Origin: a phage
Direction: 5' to 3' (one strand)
DNA length: 50,078 nt
Sequence record: NC_107631.1
Shown here: positions 1 through 49,515 of the stretch, in pieces
How positions within the stretch are numbered: the stretch's first letter is position 1
Layout of the letters: the number at the start of each line of letters is the position of its first letter
Position numbers and translations under genes: made by a program
Notes under the pieces: model-generated
Database searches by the model: none
What the model saw: only the letters and a program-made list of their open reading frames with translations
What the model was told of the DNA's origin: nothing

Positions 1-409
1 AATCAAATTTAAATGCACTTCCGCAGAAAAAATCACAGGATTCGAAGTTAATAATCTGTACAAAGGTCGTGAGCACGACGACGGCACTCGCGAAGTAAAG
101 TTAAAATGCGGTAAGTATTTAAAACTTGAAAAGCATGATGAATTACATATTCACGGATCTGATGAAATCTTCTTCGCGAAGTTCACTGAGTTGAAAACAA
201 AGACGCTCAAGTGCACCGGACTTGACCATCGCAACCCGATGAAAAAATCATTCAAGGTTGGAAAGCGTTACCAGGTAGAAAGCGGTCGCGCTCTCGGTGC
301 TGTGGCTGGTTACATCTTTGATGAGGACGGTTGCCGCTGGACCTTATACAGATCCGATATTGGATTTGAGGTAGCTGACGGTACGAAGTTTGAAGGACTT
401 TACTCATGA
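1..409 (+). CDS. hypothetical protein, 5'-truncated at window edge
   Basis: Frame is open from position 2 to the stop at 407-409; internal repeats of K-x-K-C-T / F-E-V type; overlaps the next start (ATGA). Confidence 0.5.
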   Translation, partial: IKFKCTSAEKITGFEVNNLYKGREHDDGTREVKLKCGKYLKLEKHDELHIHGSDEIFFAKFTELKTKTLKCTGLDHRNPMKKSFKVGKRYQVESGRALGAVAGYIFDEDGCRWTLYRSDIGFEVADGTKFEGLYS

Positions 410-891
410 TAAATATAAGAGATGATTTTTTATATGTTGATGGAATTATTTATTATAAGAGTAACACTAGATTTAAAAACCTTGCTGGGAGAGAGGCTGG
501 AAAGTTAGATAGGCTGGGTTACTGTAGGTTTTATGATGGGTTTAGGATGGTTTATAGACATAGATATGTATGGACTATTTTTAACGGCCAGATACCTGAA
601 GGTATGGAAATAGACCACATAAACCATATACCAGGTGATGATAGAATTGAAAATTTAAGACTTGTAACTAGAGAAGGGAACACAACAAATAGAAGTCTAA
701 ATAAAAATAACACATCTGGCATGAATTGCATATACCCTATGAAATCAGGCTCTTACAGGGTAAGAGTTAGATTTAGGGGTAAGACTTACGGAAGGTGCGT
801 TGACACTGTTAGTGAGGCTATAGATTTAAGAGATTCAATACTCATTGATCTTGGTTTTCATGAGAATCACGGATCGAATAGCATTTTTTGA
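406..891 (+). CDS. HNH homing endonuclease (HNH plus AP2-like domain)
   Basis: IDHINHIPGDDRIENLRLVTREGN motif; tail resembles AP2 domain (YRVRVRFRGKTYGRCVDTVSEA); visibly AT-rich codon usage versus neighbours. Confidence 0.8.
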   Translation: MINIRDDFLYVDGIIYYKSNTRFKNLAGREAGKLDRLGYCRFYDGFRMVYRHRYVWTIFNGQIPEGMEIDHINHIPGDDRIENLRLVTREGNTTNRSLNKNNTSGMNCIYPMKSGSYRVRVRFRGKTYGRCVDTVSEAIDLRDSILIDLGFHENHGSNSIF

Positions 892-4481: not shown

Positions 4482-4525
4482 ACTATGCCCGAATCCATTC
4501 GGGCGTTTTTATCAATTAGTGCGAT
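4482..4525 (-). promoter_or_regulatory. dyad-motif middle promoter (degenerate site)
   Basis: TCGCAC-TAA-TTGATAA on minus strand; CATAGT hexamer 28 nt downstream, inside inverted repeat GCCCGAATGGATTCGGGC. Confidence 0.45.
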
Positions 4526-6469: not shown

Positions 6470-6513
6470 ACTATACCCGACTTTCGCCGGGTAGTTTTAG
6501 CAATTAGTGCTGA
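6470..6513 (-). promoter_or_regulatory. dyad-motif middle promoter
   Basis: CAGCAC-TAA-TTGCTAA then TATAGT 28 nt downstream inside inverted repeat ACCCGGCGAAAGTCGGGT. Confidence 0.5.
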
Positions 6514-10006: not shown

Positions 10007-10045
10007 ACACGGCATACAGTAAACGTTTTTAGCAAAAAGTGCTAT
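10002..10045 (-). promoter_or_regulatory. dyad-motif promoter driving the helicase operon, overlapping the divergent early promoter
   Basis: Dyad TTAGCAA-AAA-GTGCTAT (ATAGCAC-TTT-TTGCTAA on minus) with TATTAT 28 nt downstream on the minus strand; the same dyad lies in the 5'UTR of the plus-strand transcript. Confidence 0.5.
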
Positions 10046-10057
10046 AGGAGAATTAAG

Positions 10058-10510
10058 ATGAGTATTCAACGTATCGCAGAGTCAACTGGTGAAATCGATA
10101 AACGTCACATCAATGGTAACAACGGAACACGACGCGGTAAAGATAAAAAGCCACGACAGCGCTGCGGATTCTATATTCATAAAGAAGAAACACGCGCAGG
10201 ATTGCGAGCACGACTTGATGCGCTTATCGAATATTATGGTGGCCCTGCGGCCTGCGCAAAGGCTCTAAAAGTTAGCAATCAGACGGTGCAAGGCTGGAAA
10301 GAACGCAATATGATTTCATGGCAAGGTGCTGAAGCTGCGCATCGTGCTTACCGCCGACAGGGGTGTAAAGGGTTTAGGGCCGCATGGTTGCGATTCGACC
10401 TGAAGTTTGACGGTAACGGCAAGTGCATTGAGAAGCGATGCAAGAACAAGAAGTTTATGCGAGTGGTGAAGAAGGAAGATATCGGGACGACCAATAGCAT
10501 TTTTAGTTAA
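10058..10510 (+). CDS. HTH DNA-binding protein, candidate transcriptional regulator
   Basis: Cro/C1-type HTH signature (AKALKVSNQTVQGW); basic protein; RBS AGGAG. Confidence 0.6.
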   Translation: MSIQRIAESTGEIDKRHINGNNGTRRGKDKKPRQRCGFYIHKEETRAGLRARLDALIEYYGGPAACAKALKVSNQTVQGWKERNMISWQGAEAAHRAYRRQGCKGFRAAWLRFDLKFDGNGKCIEKRCKNKKFMRVVKKEDIGTTNSIFS

Positions 10511-13475: not shown

Positions 13476-13503
13476 CAAATCCCCGCATTGCGGGGATTTT
13501 TAT
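13476..13503. terminator. bidirectional intrinsic terminator
   Basis: AATCCCCG-cattg-CGGGGATT followed by TTTT; lies between convergent genes. Confidence 0.75.
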
Positions 13504-13919: not shown

Positions 13920-13964
13920 TATTTCTCTCCTAAAATTTATGGGCGACCGAAGCCGCCCTGATGA

Positions 13965-14612
13965 TTATTCGAAGTTGGTGATTGATTGAGATTGTACAGG
14001 CTTCGCGCTAGTTGCTTCAACCTGTTTTTTCTGTTCCGGTTGCGCCGGGCGAATACCACGAGCTTTACCGATCTCAAACTTAGCCTTAAGTGCGTTGTAG
14101 TGATCCTGAATGATTGACTTGCTTGCCGTGTCCGTCTGGCGGTAAGCGTTAGCCCATACCTCTTTCAGTGATTCGATATCTTCACACGCATCAAGTTCTT
14201 TTTTCCAGTCCTTGACAGATTTCACTGCAAGCTGAGCATCGTCATCACTCTGGCTAATCCCCAGCGCTGCGGCTAATGAGTAACGTCGAGCATACGTCAT
14301 TGCGGAACCTACGCCTTGCGGATCGCGTTTTGCAATCGGCATCATCATGAAGAATTTGGCCCACTGCCCGGATTTATGAATCAACATCGTCTCAAGATGG
14401 AAGGTCGTTTCCGTGCTTGTATCAAGCATTGATTGCAAGATCATAATATCGTTGTCGGTGAGCGCCGGGCTAACGGCTGACATCATTGCATCAAGGGTTG
14501 CGTATGAATTTTTCAGGTGGTTGTTTTTTGCGTCCTTCTTTGCTTTAGCAAATTTGTTGCGAGCATTGAACAGTGCTGGAAGGATTTCGTTCGTTTCTGG
14601 TGATAATTGCAT
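13965..14612 (-). CDS. erf: ERF-family single-strand annealing recombinase
   Basis: Similar to P22 Erf: N..K.AKAKKD..NSYATLDAMMSAVSPAL and AMTYARRYSLAAALGI; start moved to Met12 with conserved ACCAATCAGGAG RBS. Confidence 0.75.
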   Translation of the reverse strand: MQLSPETNEILPALFNARNKFAKAKKDAKNNHLKNSYATLDAMMSAVSPALTDNDIMILQSMLDTSTETTFHLETMLIHKSGQWAKFFMMMPIAKRDPQGVGSAMTYARRYSLAAALGISQSDDDAQLAVKSVKDWKKELDACEDIESLKEVWANAYRQTDTASKSIIQDHYNALKAKFEIGKARGIRPAQPEQKKQVEATSAKPVQSQSITNFE

Positions 14613-16505: not shown

Positions 16506-16530
16506 AAGAAAAGCCCCGCAAGGGGCTTAG
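16505..16530. terminator. bidirectional intrinsic terminator
   Basis: AAGCCCC-gca-AGGGGCTT with A/T runs on either side. Confidence 0.7.
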
Positions 16531-17216: not shown

Positions 17217-17548
17217 TAATCATTCTCCAGATATGCTATTAAGTAACAGTTTGATGATGGGTACACGTTTGGCCCGGGTGAGTTTGTTGGCGTTACTGTT
17301 ATCGTATTACCGCTAGCAATAATTTTCCTGCCAGGCCCACTAATGGCGCCATCGTCAAGGCTTATAACGTAGTTCACATGCATACCAGGAGGAACTTGAT
17401 AGCTGAACGATGCTGAATTCTGTCCTGCTGACAAAAAGTTCCAACCAACAACCGTAACAGGCTTAATTCCATAGTTATTATAAACGCCATTTGCGTCCCA
17501 AGTTGATATACCGTACGCCATAATAAATCCTCCAAAAGAAAAGGGCAT
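17216..17548 (-). CDS. putative tail accessory protein
   Basis: Small Gly-rich protein downstream of the J-like gene; N-terminal similarity to 16527..17216. Confidence 0.4.
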   Translation of the reverse strand: MPFSFGGFIMAYGISTWDANGVYNNYGIKPVTVVGWNFLSAGQNSASFSYQVPPGMHVNYVISLDDGAISGPGRKIIASGNTITVTPTNSPGPNVYPSSNCYLIAYLEND

Positions 17549-17566
17549 CGAGAGATGCCCTTGATA

Positions 17567-20500
17567 TTACCATGAACCAGTCAACCTGCCAATCTGAACC
17601 CTCAGACGACCACTCGCATCCCTAACAGATATTGTGGTATTAGTTTGCTTCATTGCACCCTCACCGTCACTTCCGTAGTTTTCGAATGTTCCACCCTTGT
17701 CAAGCCTCCAGCCGGACTGGTTAAAGACATAGTTATTCGACTGAATGAAGTTTCCAATCATCGCATTCGTGATGAATCCGTTCTTAATGATTGCGCTATT
17801 AAGAATCACCTGATTACCTTCAACAACGAAAGGATACTGAGTCTGACCGTTCATCCCTGTCATGATTGCAAATCGTGACGCCTCGAATAGAATTTGCGCC
17901 TTAACCGCAGCACCTGAACCAATAAGAGACATAGCCATACCAGCACTGTATTCCTGGCCGTTATACTTCAGACCCAGCTTGACGCCGTACATTGCACCAG
18001 TCGAATCCGCATTACTCCACGAATCAAGTTTTTGAGAAAGTGCCGCCTCATTATCACCAAGCCTCGCGCTTAATGACAAGTCAGCTTGCGTTCTCGCCTC
18101 AGTCTCGTTTGCTATAGCCTCTCTGATATCAGTCAAACTTGCCTGGATATCATCACCAATCTCTGCCCTGAGTTGGTCGATTTCACGCGATAGCGCTCCA
18201 GTCTCAGTTGCGATAACTTCACGCAATTCGCTGTTGCTAGCGCTAATCTGATCTCCAAAACTTGCCTTCAATTGCTCGATCGCCGTCACTCGTGCCTGAG
18301 TCTCATCAACAATAAGTTTCAGTGATTTCGTGTACTCGGCTTTTCGTTTTCCGTTCTCCCTCTTCATATAGATCGCGTCTTTGTCATTGGCGAGCGCGTT
18401 TTCTATTGCCGCCTCTGCGTTAGCTGCGTTCTGCGCAGCGTTGTCGGTTGCGTTATCAACAAGCCACTTGTAACCCGGCGAGTTTTCGATATCAACAGAA
18501 ATCTCTCCGATGATATCGTCAACGTTTGTTGATGCCATGCCCCTGACAAAATCAGTCCACTGAGAAACGTTACCGATCCTGTCAACCGTCCTTACCCGAT
18601 ACCACACAATATTCCCTCCAGGCATCGGTGAGTGATAATACTCATGCTGCGGATACGGAATCAAAGAAAGCAAACTTGCGTTATCCACTGTTCCATCCGG
18701 AGACTGTTGCAACTCCGTATAGGCCGTATCTCCAGAACCATCAGAGAACCCCCATTTTGTACGGATACCAAAAACAACATCATCTGTAGCTGTAAGGTTA
18801 ATCGGCCTCCCTGGCTCTCCTTGCTTGCCTGTCAACGTCGCTGCGACGATATTTGACCATCCGGAAGTTGTACCGGAACCAGCGACGGAGCGAACGCGAA
18901 CCTGATAGTTGCCAGCGTAAATACCCTCAACGTAAACCTCTTTGTTTGCCGTCTGAGGAACGTTTTGCCAGTTGCCATTATCCTTTCTCCACTGCACATC
19001 ATAGAAAACTGCGTACGGAACTTTATCCCAGCTAACAATCATAGTTTCTACGCTCATCCCCTGGACGATTCGTGACTCAGAGGACACTTTCACGTTTTCC
19101 GGTTTAGGAATCTGATCTGGCTCAACGATGCTCGTCGGTCGGTCGTCAATGTTTACTCCGTAATCAATCTCATCGTACTTGTTAGGATCGTACTCCACCG
19201 CAGTAATTTTGTAGGTAAATTCCTCATCATCATCACCCTTGTCGATTTTGGTCACGACGTACTGCTGCAAAGCAAGGTCGGTGCGGTCGATAGCGAATAC
19301 CGTGTTAGGCTTCACAGGAAAGCCAAAGCCGATGTTAACCTCTATAGTCTTGCCATCCGCACTAACACTTGAGATTGTGCGCTTTACGGGCTTGCCATCG
19401 GGCTTATTTACGATGATGAAGTCACCTGCGCGAGCATCGACACGGAACGGCAAGAAAATCTGACTTCCAGACACTTCGAGCAAGCGCCCTGACAGGTTCA
19501 TAGTCAAGTTACTTGACCAGAAGTTATCAGCTATAGCTACAACATCTCCAATTGTCGGAATCATACCCTCAAGCCCGGTAGCAAAGTTTACCGTAGTGCT
19601 GCGAAGGTTTGTTTTCAGAATCCATCGTCCGCGACGGTTAGCTTCACTTCGACGTGTGCACCCGATCGCTGTAATGCTCGTTACGTTATTCCCGAACCGT
19701 AGAGTTGCCTCTCTGTCGAATACTGGCTCAACGTCCTGCTGATACATGTTTTGCTCATCATCAAACATAACGTTGCACGTCGTGTACATACTTTTCTCGC
19801 TTGCGAAAGTATAGGAGAAGTCACCGTTAACAACGTTGTCGTTAGTGAAGATGTACGCAGGCTCACGCGGTCTGTCGATGATTACAGAAATGCTCTCACC
19901 ATTCCAAAAACTCATGCCACGGAAGATTGAGCAAATATCTCGAATCACTTTGTAAGCATCAGTCTGTGACTGAATTATCACGTCGCAAAGGTATCGAGGC
20001 TCCGTACCGCCTTTGCCATCAGGGACCATCTGATCGCAATATTGCGCCGCCTCATATAGCGCCCATTTATCGACAGATATTCCAAGCTCTTTCTGATCAA
20101 GCCCATAACGCTGATTAATCATCAGGTCATAAAGTACCCAGGCAGGATTATTAGTCCACGCCTTCTTAAAAGTTCCATCCCAATTTCCGTTATAAGTTCG
20201 TGATTCTGGATCATAGTTTGACGGAACGTTTACAATCTTCCAGCGCTTACGAATTGAGATCGTAGGTAACTGGTTTGGGAACATCTTCGAATCGAACTCG
20301 ACGAAAAGAAGACCAGTCAGAGGGTAACGGAATTTGGCATCAATCACCTCGGCATAGCTCTTTACCTGAATCGCGTCAACAACGTTCGAGTCGTTAGAGT
20401 CTGGAGTTTTACGAACGACTCTGAATATCACCTGATTGTTGAAGTTAGGTAGGTTTACACGTCTGCTTCGATCATAACCTGACATTGTTTTGCCTTCGAT

Positions 20501-20986: not shown

Positions 20987-21033
20987 GATGTTTACCTTTT
21001 TGTGCTATTTATCGGTGAACCCATTATACAGGC

Positions 21034-21060
21034 GAAAAAAAACCCGCGCAAGGCGGGTAT
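21034..21060 (-). terminator. intrinsic terminator/attenuator between tail assembly I-like and J-like genes
   Basis: ACCCGCGCAAGGCGGGT hairpin; on the minus strand followed by T8. Confidence 0.6.
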
Positions 21061-21063
21061 ATT

Positions 21064-21663
21064 TTAACTCATATCCTCGGCATAGGAACCTGCTGAGAAA
21101 GTTGCGCCACCTCCGGCGCGATATCCATACGGGACCGGGAGAGGGTATCCCGCCGCCGTCGTATTGACAGCGCCGCCGAACGCGTACGAAGGTTTATTCT
21201 TGCTTGATTGAACTTCAAAGTTTGCGCCACCCGGCTGCGGTGAAATCATCTGCATCACGCCGCCCAGCACCATAGCGCCGCCCATCATAAACAGAGACGA
21301 GGACATTGTGCCCATTAAAGCCAGAGACGCGCCGCCAGTATAGAATGCTGCAACCATTATTGCCGCGCCCAATACAACCTGAAATAGACCTCCTGTCTTA
21401 GAGCCAGTAGGGATCGGTACGATTCTTATCTCTTTTGCGCACTTGAATTTTTCCTCTTCATGGTGTCCCACGTTAACGCCATCCACAAATATTGCAAACT
21501 TGCTACGAGATCCTACCTCGCTTTGCATGTATTCTTTAAATCCGTCCACCTGACTGGATAGCGCCCGGATGGCTTCCGGGTAAGAATCAACAGCGTAACG
21601 GTGAAAGACGCCGAAGCGTCTCCCAAGTGAACCTGATAATTTGATTAACTTTACATCATTCAT
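21064..21663 (-). CDS. tail assembly protein (lambda gpI-like)
   Basis: Position and size; C-terminal hydrophobic Gly/Ala-rich region; start moved to Met18 because track start is TTG. Confidence 0.65.
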   Translation of the reverse strand: MNDVKLIKLSGSLGRRFGVFHRYAVDSYPEAIRALSSQVDGFKEYMQSEVGSRSKFAIFVDGVNVGHHEEEKFKCAKEIRIVPIPTGSKTGGLFQVVLGAAIMVAAFYTGGASLALMGTMSSSLFMMGGAMVLGGVMQMISPQPGGANFEVQSSKNKPSYAFGGAVNTTAAGYPLPVPYGYRAGGGATFSAGSYAEDMS

Positions 21664-22394
21664 AATTTTAGATCCTTGTGCCGAACAATTAAAACGGTGT
21701 GATCCTGATACCAACCTGAATAAATATCACGGCGTGATAGCTTTCCGAAGGCGTGATGCAAGATCTGATTATCTCCCAGGTAAATCCCTGCGTGGTTCCA
21801 TACCGGAACGTTTTGCCCTATCTGCATGATTACCATATCACCGAATGACGGGTTATTCTGATCTGTAATCTCAACGAAGCCATCTTGCTTGTAATAATCC
21901 TGATAGAGATTAATTCCGTACTCAGGTTTCCACCATTCAAAATTCAATCGGCGATCGCGCAACTCTACGCCGTGCTCTTTGTGCCACGCCATAACAAGAC
22001 CATAACAGTCGAATGATCCTAATGACCACGGACGACCAATCAGAGGTAATTTCTCTGGCTTCACAAAGCGCATATCTCCTTCCGGCACGCTAACAATAAT
22101 CCAGGTAACTTCCATCTCGTTGCACATACACGTATCGTGAGCGCTCGGTAGAGTTGTAGCACCGTCTCCGGTGTGGCTGTGTACGATTGCGATCGTGGTT
22201 GATTCTGCGTCGTCCTCAATGCAGGCGTATTGCACTGCGTCCATCATGAAGTGATTTTCAGGATCGCGATGCACGTTATCAATGCGATGGTATTTTTGCA
22301 CTCGCCCCTTTTGGGTAACTACCCCGCAGCATTCGCGGGGGTATTCTTCTTGTGCATGAGTCATGATTTCAAGTTTAATTTTTGCACTAATCAT
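21660..22394 (-). CDS. minor tail protein (lambda gpK-like: JAB/MPN plus NlpC/P60)
   Basis: JAB-type metal motif HSHTGDG..S..D; Cys-His region (CYGLVMAWH); position between gpL-like and gpI-like. Confidence 0.75.
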   Translation of the reverse strand: MISAKIKLEIMTHAQEEYPRECCGVVTQKGRVQKYHRIDNVHRDPENHFMMDAVQYACIEDDAESTTIAIVHSHTGDGATTLPSAHDTCMCNEMEVTWIIVSVPEGDMRFVKPEKLPLIGRPWSLGSFDCYGLVMAWHKEHGVELRDRRLNFEWWKPEYGINLYQDYYKQDGFVEITDQNNPSFGDMVIMQIGQNVPVWNHAGIYLGDNQILHHAFGKLSRRDIYSGWYQDHTVLIVRHKDLKL

Positions 22395-22891
22395 TTTCCG
22401 TGCCTCCAGGTAAAGCCATTTTTCATGTTAAATTCTTCCCTAGCCTTTACAGCCTCATCAAGTGAGTCATAGTAGCCTATATGAGTGTTTCCAGATGATA
22501 CCCTCCACTTTCCATTCCTGTATAAATTAACACCATTAAATCCAGAAGAATTTTTTGAGTTTTTCTTCTGGTTTTTTGCGTTAATGATAGTGTCAGCAAG
22601 TCTTAGGTTTTCTATTCTATCATCTCCAGCAATTCCATTTATATGATCTATAACCTTTCCTCCTGGTATAGATCCATTAAACATGGTCCAAATAATCCTG
22701 TGTCTGTAAAATCTTTCTCCATTTATTTTTACAATGACGTAACCATCATTCCTTTTAGTTCCAGCCGATAAGCCGAGTAACCCCGGCTTTCTCTTTGGCG
22801 CTAACTTGTAAAAAATCTCTCCGTCTCTATAAGAAAATAACTCAATGTAGTTAATCATTGATTTTTCCTCTGTAGTGAAGCGACAGCGCAA
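22391..22891 (-). CDS. HNH homing endonuclease inserted in the tail operon
   Basis: IDHINGIAGDDRIENLRL motif plus AP2-like tail; AT-rich; lies between gpL-like and gpK-like genes. Confidence 0.8.
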   Translation of the reverse strand: MRCRFTTEEKSMINYIELFSYRDGEIFYKLAPKRKPGLLGLSAGTKRNDGYVIVKINGERFYRHRIIWTMFNGSIPGGKVIDHINGIAGDDRIENLRLADTIINAKNQKKNSKNSSGFNGVNLYRNGKWRVSSGNTHIGYYDSLDEAVKAREEFNMKNGFTWRHGK

Positions 22892-23637
22892 CCGCCAAAA
22901 TCCAGTTCATTGTTTGCTCCGAATCTCAGGCGGCAGGCCGTTACCGTACCTGGGCAGAAATCCAGAGAAGGATCATCTACCGGATTATTGTCTTTGTCAA
23001 AATAACCGTTTTGCCCGTTGTATCCGCAGCCTTTCCCGGTTTTATACCATCCTCTTTGTGCAAAATAGCATACGCTTTGCGTGAGTCGAGACGGGATCAT
23101 GATGCCGTCCATATCGTAAGGTGATGTGAGATCGAACCGCGCAACACTTTTATCAACATAGTTCGGACGCTCGATATAGTATACCAGCTTACGGTAAGCT
23201 CCATCAGCGATTGAGCCATCAGAGTTAATAAGCTCACGCTGAGTTATCCAGATAGTCACCTTAGCTTGCATCAATCCGTTATATGCGCGAATCATTGCCG
23301 ACACTCTGCTATCAATATTTGCCACTGTCAACTGTGGTTTAGTCGCCTTGCCGGAACTGTCGAACGAGATACCGGATATACCGAACGGTCGCGCCCCGTA
23401 TTTCTCGCCACGGAATGTAATTTCCTTCGGCGGTAGCGTTCCAGTTTGCTGGGCCTGCATGATTTCTTCTGGAGTGTACTGGATGTTCTCTCCGTGGAAT
23501 CGGTACACCTGAGCACCGAACTTACTACCATCAACTTCAATGAGGGTGATTATCTCGCCAGGATACAGTGATTGCAGGCAGTTATGAAACAGGCTCTTTC
23601 CGCTTTCTTCATCATAAAGTTTTTTGTTTTCGCTCAT
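22855..23637 (-). CDS. minor tail protein (lambda gpL-like)
   Basis: Start moved to Met20 with AGAGGA RBS; C-terminal Cys cluster (C..C..C) as in the gpL iron-sulfur domain. Confidence 0.65.
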   Translation of the reverse strand: MSENKKLYDEESGKSLFHNCLQSLYPGEIITLIEVDGSKFGAQVYRFHGENIQYTPEEIMQAQQTGTLPPKEITFRGEKYGARPFGISGISFDSSGKATKPQLTVANIDSRVSAMIRAYNGLMQAKVTIWITQRELINSDGSIADGAYRKLVYYIERPNYVDKSVARFDLTSPYDMDGIMIPSRLTQSVCYFAQRGWYKTGKGCGYNGQNGYFDKDNNPVDDPSLDFCPGTVTACRLRFGANNELDFGGCAVASLQRKNQ

Positions 23638-23678
23638 TGATTTTTCCTCTTGTTTACCTGCAACCATTCTACAGCTAC

Positions 23679-23702
23679 AAAAAAACCCGCGCAAGGCGGG
23701 CT
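23679..23702 (-). terminator. intrinsic terminator/attenuator
   Basis: ACCCGCGCAAGGCGGGC hairpin with A7 on plus strand; near-identical to the hairpin at 21034..21060. Confidence 0.6.
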
Positions 23703-23716
23703 TTTGTTATGTAGCG

Positions 23717-26946: not shown

Positions 26947-26984
26947 ATAACCCCCTATATACGAAAAAACCGCCAAACGGCGGC

Positions 26985-27311
26985 TTAGTTGTTTTGCTTA
27001 GCAATCATTTCAAGCGCTTTCGCTTCCATGATCCTAACGTCCTGCAATGCCAGTTCTTCATCTTCTATTTTATAGATTTTGAACAACATAGGCAAAACAT
27101 TATAGTCAAGACCATAAGCTCCAGCGCCTGAACTTCTCCACTGAGTGAGCATTGACGTAAAAACATTCCACGCCTTCACCATTTCAGCATCGCCGATTAT
27201 CGTTTCCGGTTCCTCGTCTTCATAGTCAGAAAGACTGAGGCCAACCGATCTTAATTGCTCTTCTGTTGGCGGTTTCTGATATAACAGATAAACCGCCCTT
27301 TTTAGTTTTTT
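26985..27311 (-). CDS. tail assembly chaperone frameshift extension (GT-type -1 frameshift product)
   Basis: The -1 frame is open from slippery heptamer A-AAA-AAC at the 3' end of 27302..27619 through to 26985, just before the tape measure gene. Confidence 0.5.
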
Positions 27312-27640: not shown

Positions 27641-27657
27641 ATAGCACTTTTTGTTAA
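27641..27657 (-). promoter_or_regulatory. dyad element immediately upstream of RBS
   Basis: TTAACAA-AAA-GTGCTAT on the coding strand, directly abutting CAACCAATCAGGAG. Confidence 0.5.
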
Positions 27658-27700
27658 AAGTTAAGTGAATAAAGTTGATAGGATGATTTTACAGAAATGA

Positions 27701-27726
27701 ATAAGGGGGCGCAAGCCCCCTATGGA
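27701..27726 (-). terminator. intrinsic terminator/attenuator
   Basis: GGGGGCTTGCGCCCCC hairpin followed by TTATT on minus strand. Confidence 0.5.
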
Positions 27727-30008: not shown

Positions 30009-30051
30009 AATTTACCCCCATAAAAAAGGCGCTACATGAGCGCCTTGATGA

Positions 30052-30339: not shown

Positions 30340-30389
30340 TTTGATTTCTCCAATAAAAAAAGGGACTAACTAAGTTAGCCCCTATAATA

Positions 30390-31349: not shown

Positions 31350-31400
31350 GATTACTTCTCCGTAGTTAATAAAAAAGCCGTGATTATGTTCACGGCTTCA

Positions 31401-31429
31401 ATAATAGCACTTTTTGTTAAAGCGTCAAA
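31401..31429 (-). promoter_or_regulatory. sigma70 promoter with embedded dyad element, upstream of the major capsid gene
   Basis: On minus strand TTTGAC-N17-TATTAT with TG extension; the spacer contains TTAACAA-AAA-GTGCTAT; followed by hairpin AAGCCGTG..CACGGCTT and T-run. Confidence 0.5.
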
Positions 31430-32208: not shown

Positions 32209-32271
32209 AATGATTTCTCCATAAAAAAAGGACTATCCAAAAAAAAGGATAGTCCCCATATTAAACGCTAA

Positions 32272-34639: not shown

Positions 34640-35939
34640 CTTCTAACTTCTCCCCTAATCCCGGTTCCGGCTCGGTTGTTTCTTCCGGTTCGCGAATGTT
34701 GATGTTATTACCATCCTTGAGTTTGAACTCAGGGGCAATGGATCGCAACGTGTCGCGAGCTTCTTCCAGATCGATGATTTGCTCAGTGATAGCCTTCGTT
34801 ACTGACTCAACGTTATTCTTCGTGATCTCTGATTCCTCTTTCTTACTCGGAACAGACAAAGGCTCAAACTCGATCGACCACTCTTCCTCATCAACAATGA
34901 ACGGCAACAAGAACTCAAGAAGCGGCCTGTAATCTTCCTCGCGCTTGCGATCGACTAGCTTATAGAAAGTCTCAAGTGCTGTGTTTTGGCTCGCTGATAC
35001 GCCGCCTACGTTCTTATTCTTGATGATAATCTCATGAATCCCGGATAGGGAGACGATGCGGTCCATCTTGCTTGATAAGAACTCAGGAACTCCGCTGATA
35101 TCAGAGTTGAGAACGTCATATTCCTCAGTCTCAGCATCGATACCGATCGCACGGCCTACGCCGGAGTTATCATCAACCTGAGCAAGTCTCAGTCGCGCGG
35201 CATACTGAGCATCATCATCATCACACATTTCAGCAAGACCTTTGACCTTCCATACAGCCTGTTGCTTACGTCGCAAGATCTGAGTAGCCAGAGATTCACA
35301 GTAATCATAGTCACAGATTGCATCAATCAGTGACTTGTTCAATACCGAAGCTCCCCATCCTTGATTCTGCTTTCTTGCCTGTTGCGTTACTCGTTCACCA
35401 TCAGCAATAAAGACTCTTGAGTGATGAATCAGATACGGCTGCATATTGTCGCCAGGGGATACCTTGTAAATTTCAGGCTCACCATAGCGAGGAGATCTTG
35501 CATTGGTGACTCGCTTTTCAACAGTGATAGCAAATCGATCGTAAACTCGGACGCCTTCAAGTTTAGCTCCAGGCTTTGCCTGACTGGTTAACATCCGGTT
35601 GTCGTTGATGATTGCCACCATCGCCGCGCCACCGTAAAGTCGCGCCCAACAAAGAAGATCCACCAGACTTGAATCAAGTTTGTAGCTATCCCATAAAGAC
35701 TTGAACTCTTTTTCATCCTTAACGCCTGACATTTTAAAACCAGCCGTCACCATCTCTTCCGGGATAACATCCACAATTCGCTTCGCGGTTGCGTTGTCGT
35801 TGTAGAAAGAACCGACGTGATATGATGCATCAGACATAAAGAATGGCTTAGGCGATCCGTCCGCGCCGCCGTTAAAGATATCGTTATATCCATCATGCTT
35901 AACAATTTTCATGTTTCCTCCAATAAAAAGGGCCGTCAA
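34629..35939 (-). CDS. portal protein
   Basis: 436 aa immediately downstream of the large terminase; acidic C-terminus. Confidence 0.7.
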   Translation of the reverse strand: MTALFIGGNMKIVKHDGYNDIFNGGADGSPKPFFMSDASYHVGSFYNDNATAKRIVDVIPEEMVTAGFKMSGVKDEKEFKSLWDSYKLDSSLVDLLCWARLYGGAAMVAIINDNRMLTSQAKPGAKLEGVRVYDRFAITVEKRVTNARSPRYGEPEIYKVSPGDNMQPYLIHHSRVFIADGERVTQQARKQNQGWGASVLNKSLIDAICDYDYCESLATQILRRKQQAVWKVKGLAEMCDDDDAQYAARLRLAQVDDNSGVGRAIGIDAETEEYDVLNSDISGVPEFLSSKMDRIVSLSGIHEIIIKNKNVGGVSASQNTALETFYKLVDRKREEDYRPLLEFLLPFIVDEEEWSIEFEPLSVPSKKEESEITKNNVESVTKAITEQIIDLEEARDTLRSIAPEFKLKDGNNINIREPEETTEPEPGLGEKLEDEN

Positions 35940-35966
35940 TTGACAGCCCTAATTATATCTCATTTA

Positions 35967-37535
35967 TTACCGCTTAACCATCCCGGCGAGTCGCTTCATT
36001 CTCTCGATAGGATCATCAATGGTCAGCAATTCGATGTTCGCCGCATCCATGAAGTTATCGACGATATCATCATGCGGGTGGGTGTCATCGTAAGTAAAGG
36101 CGCTATGTTCTGCGATGATTTCCGCAAGCATAGGGTGCTCTTCTGGAAGAACCACGCGACCAGCCTTAATGACTGGCTGAGCATCCATCGCTCGGGTAAC
36201 TTTATCCTTGTTACGCTGCAATGGAGTGATAGAGATCGGAGTCTTCTTCCTGAGATTCTGGATTAAGCCCGTACCGCTTGCTTTGTCTTCCACGTAGATT
36301 TTACGAAGCACGCCCATTGATTTATTGTGCCTCCATGCCTGATTGACGAAAGCTGTAAATTGCCTCTCCATATCCGGCGCTTCCCACTTTCCGCGAATGC
36401 CGTCGATAAAGTAAACCTTATCATTCTTCTTGCCCCACAAACAAAATACCGTGTAGTCGTTTAGCTCGCCTGTCTTCTGAGCGGTATCGGCAGTGATGAA
36501 TCGGTAATCATATTTACCCGGATCTGGCTCGTCAGCGTCAAGACTGCTGCCGTAATAAGTCCACCACTCTGAGTTAAACACTGAGCCACCCAGCGCGATC
36601 GGTTTCTGCTGATACTGAGAATCAAAGGTATACTGATCTGCTTCTCGTAACGCTAACAGGTCGTGAACGCTTTCCTTGCTGGGCCAAAAAGAGTAATGCT
36701 TAACGCCATCCAATTCTACATACTCAGACGATAAAACATCACGCTCAAAGTAAGGCTGCAACCAATCAGGAAGCGTCTTTCCGTATTCTTCAGTAACCAG
36801 CGCCGGGATTGAGATTTGGTCAAACTCAATACCCATCCCGCCATTCATCATGAACCAGGTTGAATCCTGAGCATGCAGTCGTTGCTGAATTGCAATAATA
36901 GGCGTCTCGTTATGCATACGACGGGATCGAATGGTGTTTTTCAATAGCATGTGCGTACGCTCACGCTTAACCTTTGAGAACATATCATCAGGCTTGTCGA
37001 TATCGTCGAGCATTACCATCCCTGAGAATCCCGGCATCATGTAGCCACCACGCGAACCAGTAATACGACCGCCAGCCGCTGCGGATATCAACTCAAACCA
37101 AACCTTTCCGTCACTATTCAGAACCTGAATCTCTTCGTCTTTAGATGTGCCGAACTTGCAGGGCCATAGCTCCTGGAATTCGTTGCTGCTGATAATCTCA
37201 CGAACGCGCTTACTGTTACGCTTCACCAGGCTGTCGGCAAACGACACGTTAAGGTTACGAATCTTTTTACACTTAAGCATTGCGTACACCGGGAGGTGGA
37301 TTGAGAATATCTCAGTTTTTGATGATCCTGGCGTTACGTTAAAGATGGTGTTACCGCGACGACCCGCAACAATCTCTTCAGCCTCATGACACAAGTAAAT
37401 GTGATGCCAGTTCATTGAGTATTTTTGCGCCTGCATAATCTGGAACCATGCCCTAATCATTCCAGAGAAGCTTGCCTCAGATATTTTCTTTATAGCCAGC
37501 TTCTCAAGATTGTTTAACTCTTCCCATTGCAACAT
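35967..37535 (-). CDS. terminase large subunit
   Basis: 522 aa; ATPase-like N-terminus and nuclease-like C-terminus (..FITADTA..DYTVFCLWG..); followed by portal. Confidence 0.85.
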   Translation of the reverse strand: MLQWEELNNLEKLAIKKISEASFSGMIRAWFQIMQAQKYSMNWHHIYLCHEAEEIVAGRRGNTIFNVTPGSSKTEIFSIHLPVYAMLKCKKIRNLNVSFADSLVKRNSKRVREIISSNEFQELWPCKFGTSKDEEIQVLNSDGKVWFELISAAAGGRITGSRGGYMMPGFSGMVMLDDIDKPDDMFSKVKRERTHMLLKNTIRSRRMHNETPIIAIQQRLHAQDSTWFMMNGGMGIEFDQISIPALVTEEYGKTLPDWLQPYFERDVLSSEYVELDGVKHYSFWPSKESVHDLLALREADQYTFDSQYQQKPIALGGSVFNSEWWTYYGSSLDADEPDPGKYDYRFITADTAQKTGELNDYTVFCLWGKKNDKVYFIDGIRGKWEAPDMERQFTAFVNQAWRHNKSMGVLRKIYVEDKASGTGLIQNLRKKTPISITPLQRNKDKVTRAMDAQPVIKAGRVVLPEEHPMLAEIIAEHSAFTYDDTHPHDDIVDNFMDAANIELLTIDDPIERMKRLAGMVKR

Positions 37536-38079
37536 TTTTCAACTCCCCTTCATTAAATGACCTTTCACACAAGTTTTCATGAATTTCTAATTTCGCTTTC
37601 GCGTATGCTGCTCTACATTCTTCCGGAGTGTCAAAATAACCAATGAATGTTACCTTGCCTTTCCTCTTAATCCTGCAATGCCATCGACCAACCCTTTTCT
37701 CAAAATATCCACCAGCAATATCATTGCAATCTCTATTCTGCTGATTCCTCATCGCGTCAGTTTCTTGCAGGTTTTTTACTGCATTGTTTTGTCTGTCACC
37801 ATCAATGTGATCTATTTTTTCAGGCCATACCCCATAATGAAGGAACCACACCACGCGATGAGCAAAAAACCTCCTACCCCTACTACCGCGCTGACCTCTA
37901 AAATAACCGTCTTTAGTAACCTCCCTGAATGCGACGGAGTTTTCCTTATTCCTATGAAACATGTTCTTAAATCTCAATGATGTAGGTGATGATTCGTCGT
38001 AATATACGTGATCCAACAACCACGCCTCATCATCTGCACTTACTTCTCTTGCTAATCCTGTGTTCATAGTCAAACCCAT
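37504..38079 (-). CDS. HNH endonuclease between terminase subunit genes
   Basis: IDHIDGDRQNNAVKNL motif and AP2-like tail; overlaps the large terminase start. Confidence 0.75.
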   Translation of the reverse strand: MGLTMNTGLAREVSADDEAWLLDHVYYDESSPTSLRFKNMFHRNKENSVAFREVTKDGYFRGQRGSRGRRFFAHRVVWFLHYGVWPEKIDHIDGDRQNNAVKNLQETDAMRNQQNRDCNDIAGGYFEKRVGRWHCRIKRKGKVTFIGYFDTPEECRAAYAKAKLEIHENLCERSFNEGELKNVAMGRVKQS

Positions 38080-38632: not shown

Positions 38633-38649
38633 AAATCCATCCTCTTTGT

Positions 38650-38666
38650 TTAACATTTAGTGCTAT
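38650..38666 (-). promoter_or_regulatory. dyad element just upstream of the putative TerS RBS
   Basis: TTAACAT-TTA-GTGCTAT on plus strand; TGGTAAAAT extended -10-like sequence adjacent on minus strand. Confidence 0.4.
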
Positions 38667-38682
38667 TTTACCATATTGCAGG

Positions 38683-38712
38683 CATAAAAAAACCCGCCGG
38701 AGCGGGTTAGTG
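38683..38712 (-). terminator. intrinsic terminator
   Basis: ACCCGCCGGAGCGGGT hairpin with A7 on plus strand. Confidence 0.55.
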
Positions 38713-40453: not shown

Positions 40454-40497
40454 ACTATATCAAATCACCCCATCGACGTTTTAGCAATTCGTGCTAT
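40454..40497 (-). promoter_or_regulatory. dyad-motif middle promoter
   Basis: ATAGCAC-GAA-TTGCTAA; TGaTATAGT extended -10 28 nt downstream inside inverted repeat GTCGATG..CATCGAC. Confidence 0.55.
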
Positions 40498-41748: not shown

Positions 41749-41792
41749 ATTCTAACAAATACCCTTGAGCAAGTTTTAGCAATTCGTGCTAT
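41749..41792 (-). promoter_or_regulatory. dyad-motif middle promoter
   Basis: ATAGCAC-GAA-TTGCTAA then TGtTAGAAT 28 nt downstream inside inverted repeat AAGGG..CCCTT. Confidence 0.55.
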
Positions 41793-42286: not shown

Positions 42287-42312
42287 TGATAGGTTTTAGC
42301 AATTCGTGCTAT
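42269..42312 (-). promoter_or_regulatory. dyad-motif middle promoter
   Basis: ATAGCAC-GAA-TTGCTAA then TATGAT 28 nt downstream inside inverted repeat GGGAAT..ATTCCC. Confidence 0.55.
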
Positions 42313-43842: not shown

Positions 43843-43886
43843 ACTATATCAAATGGCCTTGCGGAAGGTTTAGCAATTCGTGCTAT
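43843..43886 (-). promoter_or_regulatory. dyad-motif middle promoter (cassette family B)
   Basis: ATAGCAC-GAA-TTGCTAA then TGaTATAGT 28 nt downstream inside inverted repeat GGCCA..TGGCC. Confidence 0.55.
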
Positions 43887-44465: not shown

Positions 44466-44509
44466 ATTATACCAGTCAGGACAAATCCCCTTTTAACAAT
44501 TCGTGCTAT
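44466..44509 (-). promoter_or_regulatory. dyad-motif middle promoter
   Basis: ATAGCAC-GAA-TTGTTAA then TGgTATAAT 28 nt downstream inside inverted repeat GGGGATT..AATCCCC. Confidence 0.6.
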
Positions 44510-45205: not shown

Positions 45206-45249
45206 ATAATACCCGATCCGCTCGATCGGGCTTTAACAAAAAGTGCTAT
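45206..45249 (-). promoter_or_regulatory. dyad-motif middle promoter (cassette family A)
   Basis: ATAGCAC-TTT-TTGTTAA then TATTAT 28 nt downstream after inverted repeat CCCGATC..GATCGGG. Confidence 0.55.
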
Positions 45250-46859: not shown

Positions 46860-46903
46860 ACTATACCAAGCTATCCCGATCCAGCTTTAACAAAAAGTGC
46901 TAT
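46860..46903 (-). promoter_or_regulatory. dyad-motif middle promoter (cassette family A)
   Basis: ATAGCAC-TTT-TTGTTAA then TGgTATAGT 28 nt downstream inside inverted repeat GGGATA..TATCCC. Confidence 0.55.
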
Positions 46904-47911: not shown

Positions 47912-47928
47912 ATAGCACTTTTTGCTAA
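47912..47928 (+). promoter_or_regulatory. dyad element without an obvious -10 partner
   Basis: ATAGCAC-TTT-TTGCTAA; no -10-like hexamer at +28 on either strand. Confidence 0.4.
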
Positions 47929-48116
47929 AAATGGAGATGACTACCAGGCGAACCGGGTAACACCAATTCCTCCCTCTCACAATCATTGCAATCTCAGCAA
48001 CAAATCAACCAACTGTTGCACACCATGCAATAATCACGTTTCATCATTCGCAATCAATAACAATCAAAATTATTCCACCTATTCCAGTATTGATGGAATA
48101 ATGAGCAATTATTGAA

Positions 48117-49331: not shown

Positions 49332-49471
49332 TTTATGTTCACACCTTTTATACAGGAAAGTTTAACAGCGTAAAAAATGTTCGCGTTTACGATAGTCACC
49401 AAAAAGCAATGATGCAGAGAGTAGTGCTAGGAGGAACAATCAAAGAGTGCAAAGTAATCTCTGAGTACTGA
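49328..49471 (+). CDS. hypothetical very small protein, not in ORF track
   Basis: ATG overlapping the previous stop (ATGA); coordinates approximate. Confidence 0.25.
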   Translation: MIYVHTFYTGKFNSVKNVRVYDSHQKAMMQRVVLGGTIKECKVISEY

Positions 49472-49515
49472 TAGCACAAATTGCTAAAGACACACACCGG
49501 GGAGTGAGTTATATT
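49471..49515 (+). promoter_or_regulatory. dyad-motif promoter
   Basis: ATAGCAC-AAA-TTGCTAA then TTATAT(T) 28-29 nt downstream inside inverted repeat GGGAGT..ACTCCC. Confidence 0.5.

Follow-up and report, generated by a model that had tools for sequence, protein, structure and literature searches.

The minus-strand structural-gene block of the phage sequence NC_107631.1, whose 50,078 nucleotides (nt) were analysed whole and are called the window here, contains a series of short units in which a GC-rich hairpin is followed by a run of T. It is likely that these units are Rho-independent terminators of the host RNA polymerase, most of them fused to a -10 box of the sigma-70 type as terminator-promoter cassettes. 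Sequences are written on the coding (minus) strand unless stated otherwise. The presence of intrinsic terminators is already known, because the GenBank record of Escherichia phage T1 (AY216660.1) carries the entry 'terminator, rho-independent' at the homologues of eight of the ten sites that an initial annotation of this DNA had listed (38683, 32221, 31370, 30351, 30017, 26964, 23679 and 21034), and because of the literature on T1-like phages; rediscovering these terminators by itself changes little. What is added here is comparative evidence suggesting that most of the units are terminator-promoter cassettes of two fixed geometries, together with evidence that the T1 lineage may have had one of its cassettes replaced, and an independent lead concerning a marbox-like repeat.

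The window is about as long as a whole T1-type genome (50 kb), and its minus strand carries the packaging, head and tail genes between about 39000 and 16500. The 12.5 kb between positions 20000 and 32500 are 95.6-95.8% identical to T1 and to phage Eco_BIFF (Tunavirus, Drexlerviridae), and 200 phage records match this region. The T1 record offers the closest comparison, with the same genes, the same junctions and nearly the same sequences. It also marks terminators downstream of J and where the block ends, as well as a promoter just before the MCP terminator, so that promoter and terminator are both annotated at the Ig/MCP junction; it differs from the present description in marking no other promoter at these junctions and in leaving the MTP/G (27701) and TerL/portal (35921) hairpins unmarked. 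According to the T1 genome paper (Roberts et al. 2004, PMID 14972552), as quoted in the paper on phage TLS, the T1 late region consists of 'transcriptons' flanked by terminators and containing RpoD promoters (PMC11447400). The same paper predicts 21 terminators in TLS (PMC11447400); other T1-like phages have 18-21 predicted terminators, and the range across papers on T1-like phages is 8 to 21. Although T1 is a classic phage, no published account of its transcription programme was found. A comparison of the window with Rfam gave no hit at the gathering threshold of any family, and therefore the units are not members of a curated RNA family.

The initial annotation had described two near-identical units of an A-run and a hairpin, and its description is borne out. 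The plus strand has two exact copies of the 16-mer ACCCGCGCAAGGCGGG, one at 21042-21057 behind a run of A8 (21035-21042) and one at 23685-23700 behind A7 (23679-23685); three or more matches to it with up to three mismatches were obtained in none of 100 shuffles. As had been stated, the first unit separates the I-like from the J-like gene and the second the M-like from the L-like gene, and on the coding strand each reads as a hairpin followed by a U-run, at positions whose T1 homologues are annotated as rho-independent terminators. On that strand the exact 22-mer CCCGCCTTGCGCGGGTTTTTTT is common to the I/J and M/L units, the motif CTGTA(T/G)AATGG recurs at equal distance in both (within CTGTATAATGG and CTGTAGAATGG), and the local alignment extends over 38 nt. 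Each of the other eight listed sites likewise consists, on the minus strand, of a GC-rich hairpin with a T-rich tail behind it (table 1), and three additional sites, absent from that list, were detected at 17562-17541, 16528-16511 and 13499-13477. Hairpin energies range from -9.5 to -17 kcal/mol.

Such units are far more frequent than expected by chance. A scan of the coding strand from 13400 to 39000 returned 15 sites, compared with 0.93 +/- 0.95 in 60 dinucleotide shuffles (largest count 3), and 13 of the 15 are intergenic; on the opposite strand 5 sites were found. These numbers bear on the view that the units act as DNA, for instance as cruciforms, palindromes bound by protein or sites of recombination, or that they are simply chance matches. 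Some units do look symmetric owing to their upstream A-runs, and the plus-strand scan flags 21042-21058 and 23686-23700 as terminator-like. Chance is excluded by the shuffles, and a role at the level of DNA is at odds with the strand bias, with the location of the sites directly after stop codons and with stems that covary in sequence, so that no fixed protein site is kept; this view as a whole is highly improbable. The plus strand is also terminator-like at 21042-21058, 23686-23700 and 13477-13499, where the upstream A-tract is the T-rich tail of the other strand and the loop reads GCAA(G), and antisense transcription may also be stopped at these three hairpins.

The units carry the hallmarks of intrinsic terminators. 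Their stems have 6-11 pairs, 4-6 of them GC, their loops have 3-8 nt, and in 10 of the 14 hairpins tallied (that at 13499-13477 included) the 8 nt that follow the scanned stem include 5-7 T. At M/L the T7 run is partly paired into a stem extended by A4, and at GT/TMP the 8-nt window after the stem holds 3 T. Their location behind stop codons, on the strand of the genes, also exceeds the chance expectation.

The same features are retained in relatives. Nine gene junctions were extracted from about 140 related loci, 80 of them centred on the L-like gene (63-100% protein identity) and 63 on the MCP gene (57-100% protein identity), and all counts given below are of distinct sequences. A hairpin with a T-run is kept in at least 83% of the sequences at all nine junctions, and in at least 87% at eight of them. 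Each junction presents 10-21 distinct hairpins, and at least two types of Watson-Crick pair occur at 2-7 of the first seven stem positions, a count that leans towards structure in that it was made on individually detected hairpins with alignments fitted to each. RNAalifold applied to MAFFT alignments found compensatory changes in four of six pairs; it recovered only these six because the hairpins shift register between lineages in the alignments. The stem structure is thus kept by compensatory change, as is characteristic of a terminator. In a close relative with an apparently recombinant J gene, 68% identical (L008:6119-6197), the I/J hairpin is lost (ACCCGCTCCGCATTCATTTTTTTT) and the T-run, the TATAAT box and the repeat-like element are kept, which makes this locus a natural terminator knock-out.

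It could be argued that the hairpins act after transcription, as protectors of 3' ends against 3' exonucleases or as RNase E/III processing signals within A/U-rich boxes, and thereby set the half-lives of messengers instead of stopping polymerase. Hairpins of -9.5 to -17 kcal/mol do adjoin A/U-rich single-stranded stretches, and the early-region modules described below have comparable covarying hairpins without T-runs, so that some hairpins of this phage clearly do something other than terminate. The T-run, present in the 10 of 14 hairpins mentioned above, is the signature of a terminator and is not needed for protection, and the TAnnAT pattern beside the stems, with invariant A2 and T6 and often with TG upstream, fits a -10 hexamer better than the loose preference of RNase E. 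A post-transcriptional role as the principal function is decidedly unlikely; the two roles are compatible and do not exclude each other.

At seven of the nine surveyed junctions the TAnnAT box beside the stem, and not the stem itself, shows the strongest conservation of any intergenic feature. In the I/J alignment of 27 diverse sequences the T, A, A, A and T columns of TA(T/C)AAT are invariant together with part of the T-run, and the stem sequence varies. Boxes are present in 93-100% of the sequences at the seven junctions, and have the form TAnnnT with conserved A at -11 and T at -7 that is typical of the -10 element.

The boxes occur in two arrangements. In the first (layout A; MTP/G, M/L and I/J) the hairpin and T-run are followed by 4-9 nt and then by the box, which is found in 48 of 48, 52 of 54 and 57 of 58 sequences, respectively. 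The TTG of the loop stands 16-18 nt upstream of the box in 47 of 48, 30 of 52 and 35 of 57 sequences in the same order, and in the window the loop of all three units is CTTGCG and their TTGCGC stands at a distance of exactly 17 nt from the box. The g75/TerS unit probably belongs to this layout. In the second arrangement (layout B) 0-4 nt separate the end of the box from the GC core of the stem that follows, and the ribosome-binding site comes directly after the T-run; boxes were counted in 37 of 37 sequences at TerL/portal, 14 of 15 at deco/Ig, 38 of 41 at Ig/MCP and 39 of 39 at MCP/g95, compared with 0.2-0.3 in shuffles, and J/g110 is probably of the same type. Good -35 elements are present at Ig/MCP (TTGACG, spacer 16) and at J/g110 (TTGGCA, spacer 17). 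The g95/g136 and GT/TMP units are terminator-only (layout C) and have no conserved box. In a distant lineage (L132-L141; MCP 57% identical) the order at Ig/MCP is reversed, the promoter following the terminator at a distance of 20 nt and being itself followed by no hairpin, and therefore the terminator and promoter functions appear to be separable and both kept. The TerL/portal hairpin of that lineage has no T-run.

Two consequences are expected if the units work as cassettes. First, the terminators would cut the structural-gene block of about 25 kb into about a dozen short transcription units; second, the promoter at most junctions would restart transcription, so that the block would be expressed by termination plus re-initiation rather than by simple attenuation within one long transcript. 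In layout A the hairpin loop and the T-run would serve as the -35 element and spacer of the next promoter. In layout B the start site would fall inside the 5' arm, and RNA launched there would lack the terminator hairpin and escape, whereas RNA arriving from upstream would terminate; with a start predicted 6-8 nt past the box, the residual stem has 0 to -7.7 kcal/mol and is detached from the U-run by unpaired bases, compared with -13 to -17 kcal/mol for the full hairpin. At a rate of about 50 nt/s a 25-kb transcript would take up most of the latent period of T1, which is about 13 minutes, and for this reason many promoters make sense for a T1-like phage.

The principal competing explanation is that the hairpins do nothing but attenuate: late transcripts, long and few or even single, would run through the block, each hairpin would stop some of the polymerases and so lower dosage stepwise, possibly with the aid of an antiterminator, and the TAnnAT boxes would be functionless. 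The initial annotation had proposed something close to this, namely partial terminators that set the ratios of structural proteins, and for two junctions the proposal fits. At g95/g136 and GT/TMP the hairpin and T-run abut the ribosome-binding site, and since conserved promoter boxes are absent behind the hairpin, the genes that follow must depend on read-through; such terminator-only sites would work by attenuation, so that the connector genes behind g95 and the tape measure gene behind the chaperones would be expressed less, and low-copy proteins such as the tape measure protein do follow sites of this kind. The weak T-run at MTP/G would also leak. At seven of nine junctions the proposal does not fit, since a conserved -10-like box stands beside the hairpin and is the most conserved element there, with invariant positions that agree with the known profile of the -10 hexamer. 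Further points against attenuation alone are the full promoter TTGACG-16-TGnTATTAT at Ig/MCP, which is annotated in T1, the share of the latent period that transit of a 25-kb operon would use at the textbook rate, and the T1 record, which annotates no antiterminator, a statement about annotation only, as no search for remote homologues was made. Attenuation as the sole function of the units is unlikely.

Several observations nevertheless weigh against the cassette reading. The promoter before MCP is the sole one that the T1 record annotates among these junctions, and the authors of the TLS paper, using stringent promoter prediction, found three sigma-70 promoters only and did not affirm the transcriptons (PMC11447400). 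No mapping of transcript 3' or 5' ends was found in the literature for any T1-like phage, Tunavirus or Drexlerviridae, and the PhageExpressionAtlas paper does not mention T1-like phages. The putative -35 element of layout A, TTGCGC in the hairpin loop, matches at only three of six positions, and the TG that is often present lies, in the T1 group, directly against the hexamer, one nucleotide off the extended -10 register. The regions are A/T-rich, and under lenient criteria the shuffle control for a downstream box is high (0.5-0.66), and therefore the case for layout A depends on the fixed position and the invariant columns. The J/g110 hexamers are part of the last stretch of the J coding sequence, which makes their conservation ambiguous. 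Finally, the T-run at MTP/G is degenerate and interrupted in the window (TATTCATTTC, at 27704; 5 T in 8), where relatives have T6-7.

If the units are terminator-promoter cassettes, they provide a family-wide map of predicted late-transcript ends and starts in T1-like phages, which follows a simple rule: the box comes after the T-run or abuts the stem. Compact cassettes of this type would also be handy insulator parts for synthetic biology.

The identity of the I/J and M/L units had been taken by the initial annotation as a sign of duplication. A recent duplication that created a new site was rejected, since both junctions carry a terminator in nearly all relatives. A different form of copying is better supported. 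The M/L unit of the window aligns best with I/J units of other lineages, its top 12 hits all being I/J and none an orthologous M/L unit, and outside the T1 group the two hairpins differ (TLS-like phages have GCCGCCATTGTGCGGC at M/L and ACCCGCCGTTGCGCGGGT at I/J). This suggests that the M/L cassette of the T1 lineage was replaced or converted by an I/J-type cassette of about 40 nt, and in this sense of replacement or conversion the idea of duplication survives. The sequences are short, and convergence of the two units under the same constraints is also a possible source of their identity.

Two well-known late programmes allow further comparison. The late operon of phage lambda (PR', tR', Q) shares with the window the order of homologous tail genes (M, L, K, I, J), and its late transcript likewise runs across terminator hairpins. 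In textbook accounts, however, lambda uses one promoter and an antiterminator that carries polymerase through all terminators, and its protein ratios are mostly set at translation, whereas in the window about a dozen terminators interrupt the block, most of them joined to a conserved -10 box of their own, and the T1 annotation names no Q-like function. Late transcription of phage T4 resembles the proposed arrangement in having many promoters across the structural genes, with a -10-type box and a weak or absent -35. The textbook T4 late promoters (TATAAATA) differ in that they need gp55, gp33 and the sliding clamp, whereas the boxes of the window look like ordinary sigma-70 -10 hexamers, and we know of no systematic fusion of T4 late promoters with terminators. 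For T1-like phages no phage sigma factor is known (PMC11447400).

A second element of the window offers a separate lead. The heptamer ATAGCAC occurs 20 times, compared with 5.8 expected, and heads a 21-nt repeat, aaATAGCACnnnTTGnTAAAA, which the authors of the TLS paper had described and left without an explained function (PMC11447400). The repeat matches the marbox consensus of MarA/SoxS/Rob, gcannwwntgnnaaa (PMC12052159), at every specified position. Of the 17 exact matches to this consensus in the window, where 0.97 +/- 1.08 are expected, 15 belong to copies of the repeat (table 1).

In early and middle modules the repeat is forward, and its TTGnTA lies 22 nt from the -10 hexamer in 214 of 234 distinct contexts from 47 relatives (L175-L221); 269 contexts have the repeat on the gene strand and 53 on the opposite strand. 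With a start predicted 7 nt after the hexamer, the centre of the repeat would be near -40. Marboxes of class II promoters are forward, centred at about -36 to -55 (near -41), and overlap or replace the -35 element so that none is recognisable (PMC12052159); the early and middle promoters, in which no -35 is left, appear to have this geometry. The phage repeat is thus like those of class II MarA/SoxS/Rob promoters of Enterobacteriaceae in its consensus match, orientation, position near -40 and replacement of the -35. It differs from host marboxes, as far as its sequence tells, in being far less degenerate and partly palindromic (TAGCA-N5-TGCTA), and for these two reasons a phage protein remains an alternative reader. 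None of 10 early open reading frames matched an AraC-type helix-turn-helix family, one (10058-10510) being weakly Cro/C2-like, and no paper linking marboxes to phage promoters was found in the literature. Two other interpretations of the repeat were rejected: as an antisense promoter, since the would-be -7 T is not conserved on the opposite strand, and as a source of a normal -35 (TTGnTA), since the spacing to the -10 hexamer is 22 nt and not 16-18.

In contrast to its place at early and middle promoters, the repeat covers or follows the core promoter in late cassettes. The spacer of the Ig/MCP promoter is an inverted copy of it; at g75/TerS it covers or immediately follows the candidate -10 box TGGTAAAAT; the J leader has a version with one mismatch; and a further inverted copy is found down from the MTP/G unit, at 27658-27641. 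A marbox over the promoter spacer represses pbpG in E. coli (PMC12052159). We tentatively raise the possibility, which we hold to be doubtful, that the bifunctional cassettes are part of a genome-wide programme read through the marbox-type 21-mer, in which one factor, host Rob/MarA/SoxS or a phage mimic, could switch early units on and hold late units back. Should the link to the marbox be borne out, it would explain the repeat of the TLS paper and tie the timing of phage genes to a host stress regulator.

The early and middle modules also contain GC-rich inverted repeats, 6-15 bp long and with a different sequence in each copy (for example AAGGCCATT..AGTGGCCTT and GGGATAGCT..AGTTATCCC). These inverted repeats are located downstream of the 21-nt repeats at 40497, 41792, 42312, 43886, 44509, 45249, 46903 and 7536 on the minus strand and at 49471 and 49991 on the plus strand. 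They wrap or precede an extended -10 box and have no T-run, and RNA from that promoter would be without the hairpin; one possibility is that they protect the 3' end of read-through RNA.

Table 1. Coordinates of the hairpin units, their predicted promoter elements and the marbox-like repeats in the window (RBS, ribosome-binding site; energies in kcal/mol).
Feature	Position	Strand	Details
g75/TerS terminator, hairpin and T7	38691-38708	-	followed by CAATAT 38678-38673, TGGTAAAAT 38673-38665 and 21-nt repeat 38666-38648
TerL/portal unit	35929-35957	-	TATAAT 35957-35952, one nt, hairpin 35950-35929 (-15.6), T5, RBS
deco/Ig unit	32228-32263	-	TAATAT 32263-32258 abutting hairpin 32257-32228 (-17.0), T7, RBS
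Ig/MCP unit	31374-31428	-	TTGACG-16-TGcTATTAT 31428-31401, hairpin 31399-31374 (-14.5), T6, RBS
MCP/g95 unit	30361-30389	-	TATTAT/TAATAT box 30389-30384 abutting hairpin 30383-30361 (-13.3), T7, RBS
g95/g136 unit, terminator-only	30026-30046	-	-11.4; T6, then RBS
MTP/G unit	27686-27721	-	hairpin 27721-27704 (-14.0, loop TTGC), degenerate T-run, CTGTAAAAT 27694-27686
GT/TMP unit, terminator-only	26967-26986	-	-11.8
M/L terminator, A4-extended hairpin AAAAGCCCGC-CTTGC-GCGGGTTTTT and T7	23681-23705	-	-13.1
M/L -10-like box TAGAAT, within CTGTAGAATGG, after terminator	23666-23671	-	box in 52 of 54 distinct relatives
I/J terminator hairpin ACCCGC-CTTGC-GCGGGT	21042-21058	-	-9.5; loop TTGCGC 17 nt upstream of -10 box; covarying stems in relatives
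I/J terminator T8 run (A-run on plus strand)	21034-21041	-	
I/J -10-like box TATAAT, within CTGTATAATGG, after terminator	21023-21028	-	box in 57 of 58 distinct relatives
Repeat-like 19-mer ATAGCACAAAAAGGTAAAC, J leader	20990-21008	-	one mismatch to marbox pattern; includes AAGG RBS
J/g110 unit	17541-17592	-	TTGGCA-17-TGgTAATAT 17592-17564, hairpin 17562-17541 (-13.9), T-run
Terminator at end of late block	16511-16528	-	convergent with plus-strand cor-like gene
Marbox matches in 21-nt repeat	4508-4522, 6496-6510, 10028-10042, 38649-38663, 40480-40494, 41775-41789	-	
Marbox matches in 21-nt repeat	42295-42309, 43869-43883, 44492-44506, 45232-45246, 46886-46900	-	
Marbox matches in 21-nt repeat	27644-27658, 31407-31421, 47915-47929, 49474-49488	+	

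Outside the late block, a promoter-like element TTGAAG-18-TACAAT (within CTGTACAAT; region 13941-13999, minus strand) lies inside the end of the recombinase gene. Thirty nucleotides past it and just before the SSB gene there is a hairpin at 13958-13941 (-12.7 kcal/mol), which has no T-run (4 T in 8) and is a hairpin of a 5' untranslated region, not a terminator.

Three open reading frames of the window encode HNH_3 homing endonucleases, at 22391-22891 (-), 37504-38079 (-) and 406-891 (+), with E values of 1e-16, 4e-12 and 2e-19, respectively. Two of them are insertions relative to T1: that at 22391-22891 lies between the L-like and K-like tail genes, and that at 37504-38079 between the small and large terminase genes.

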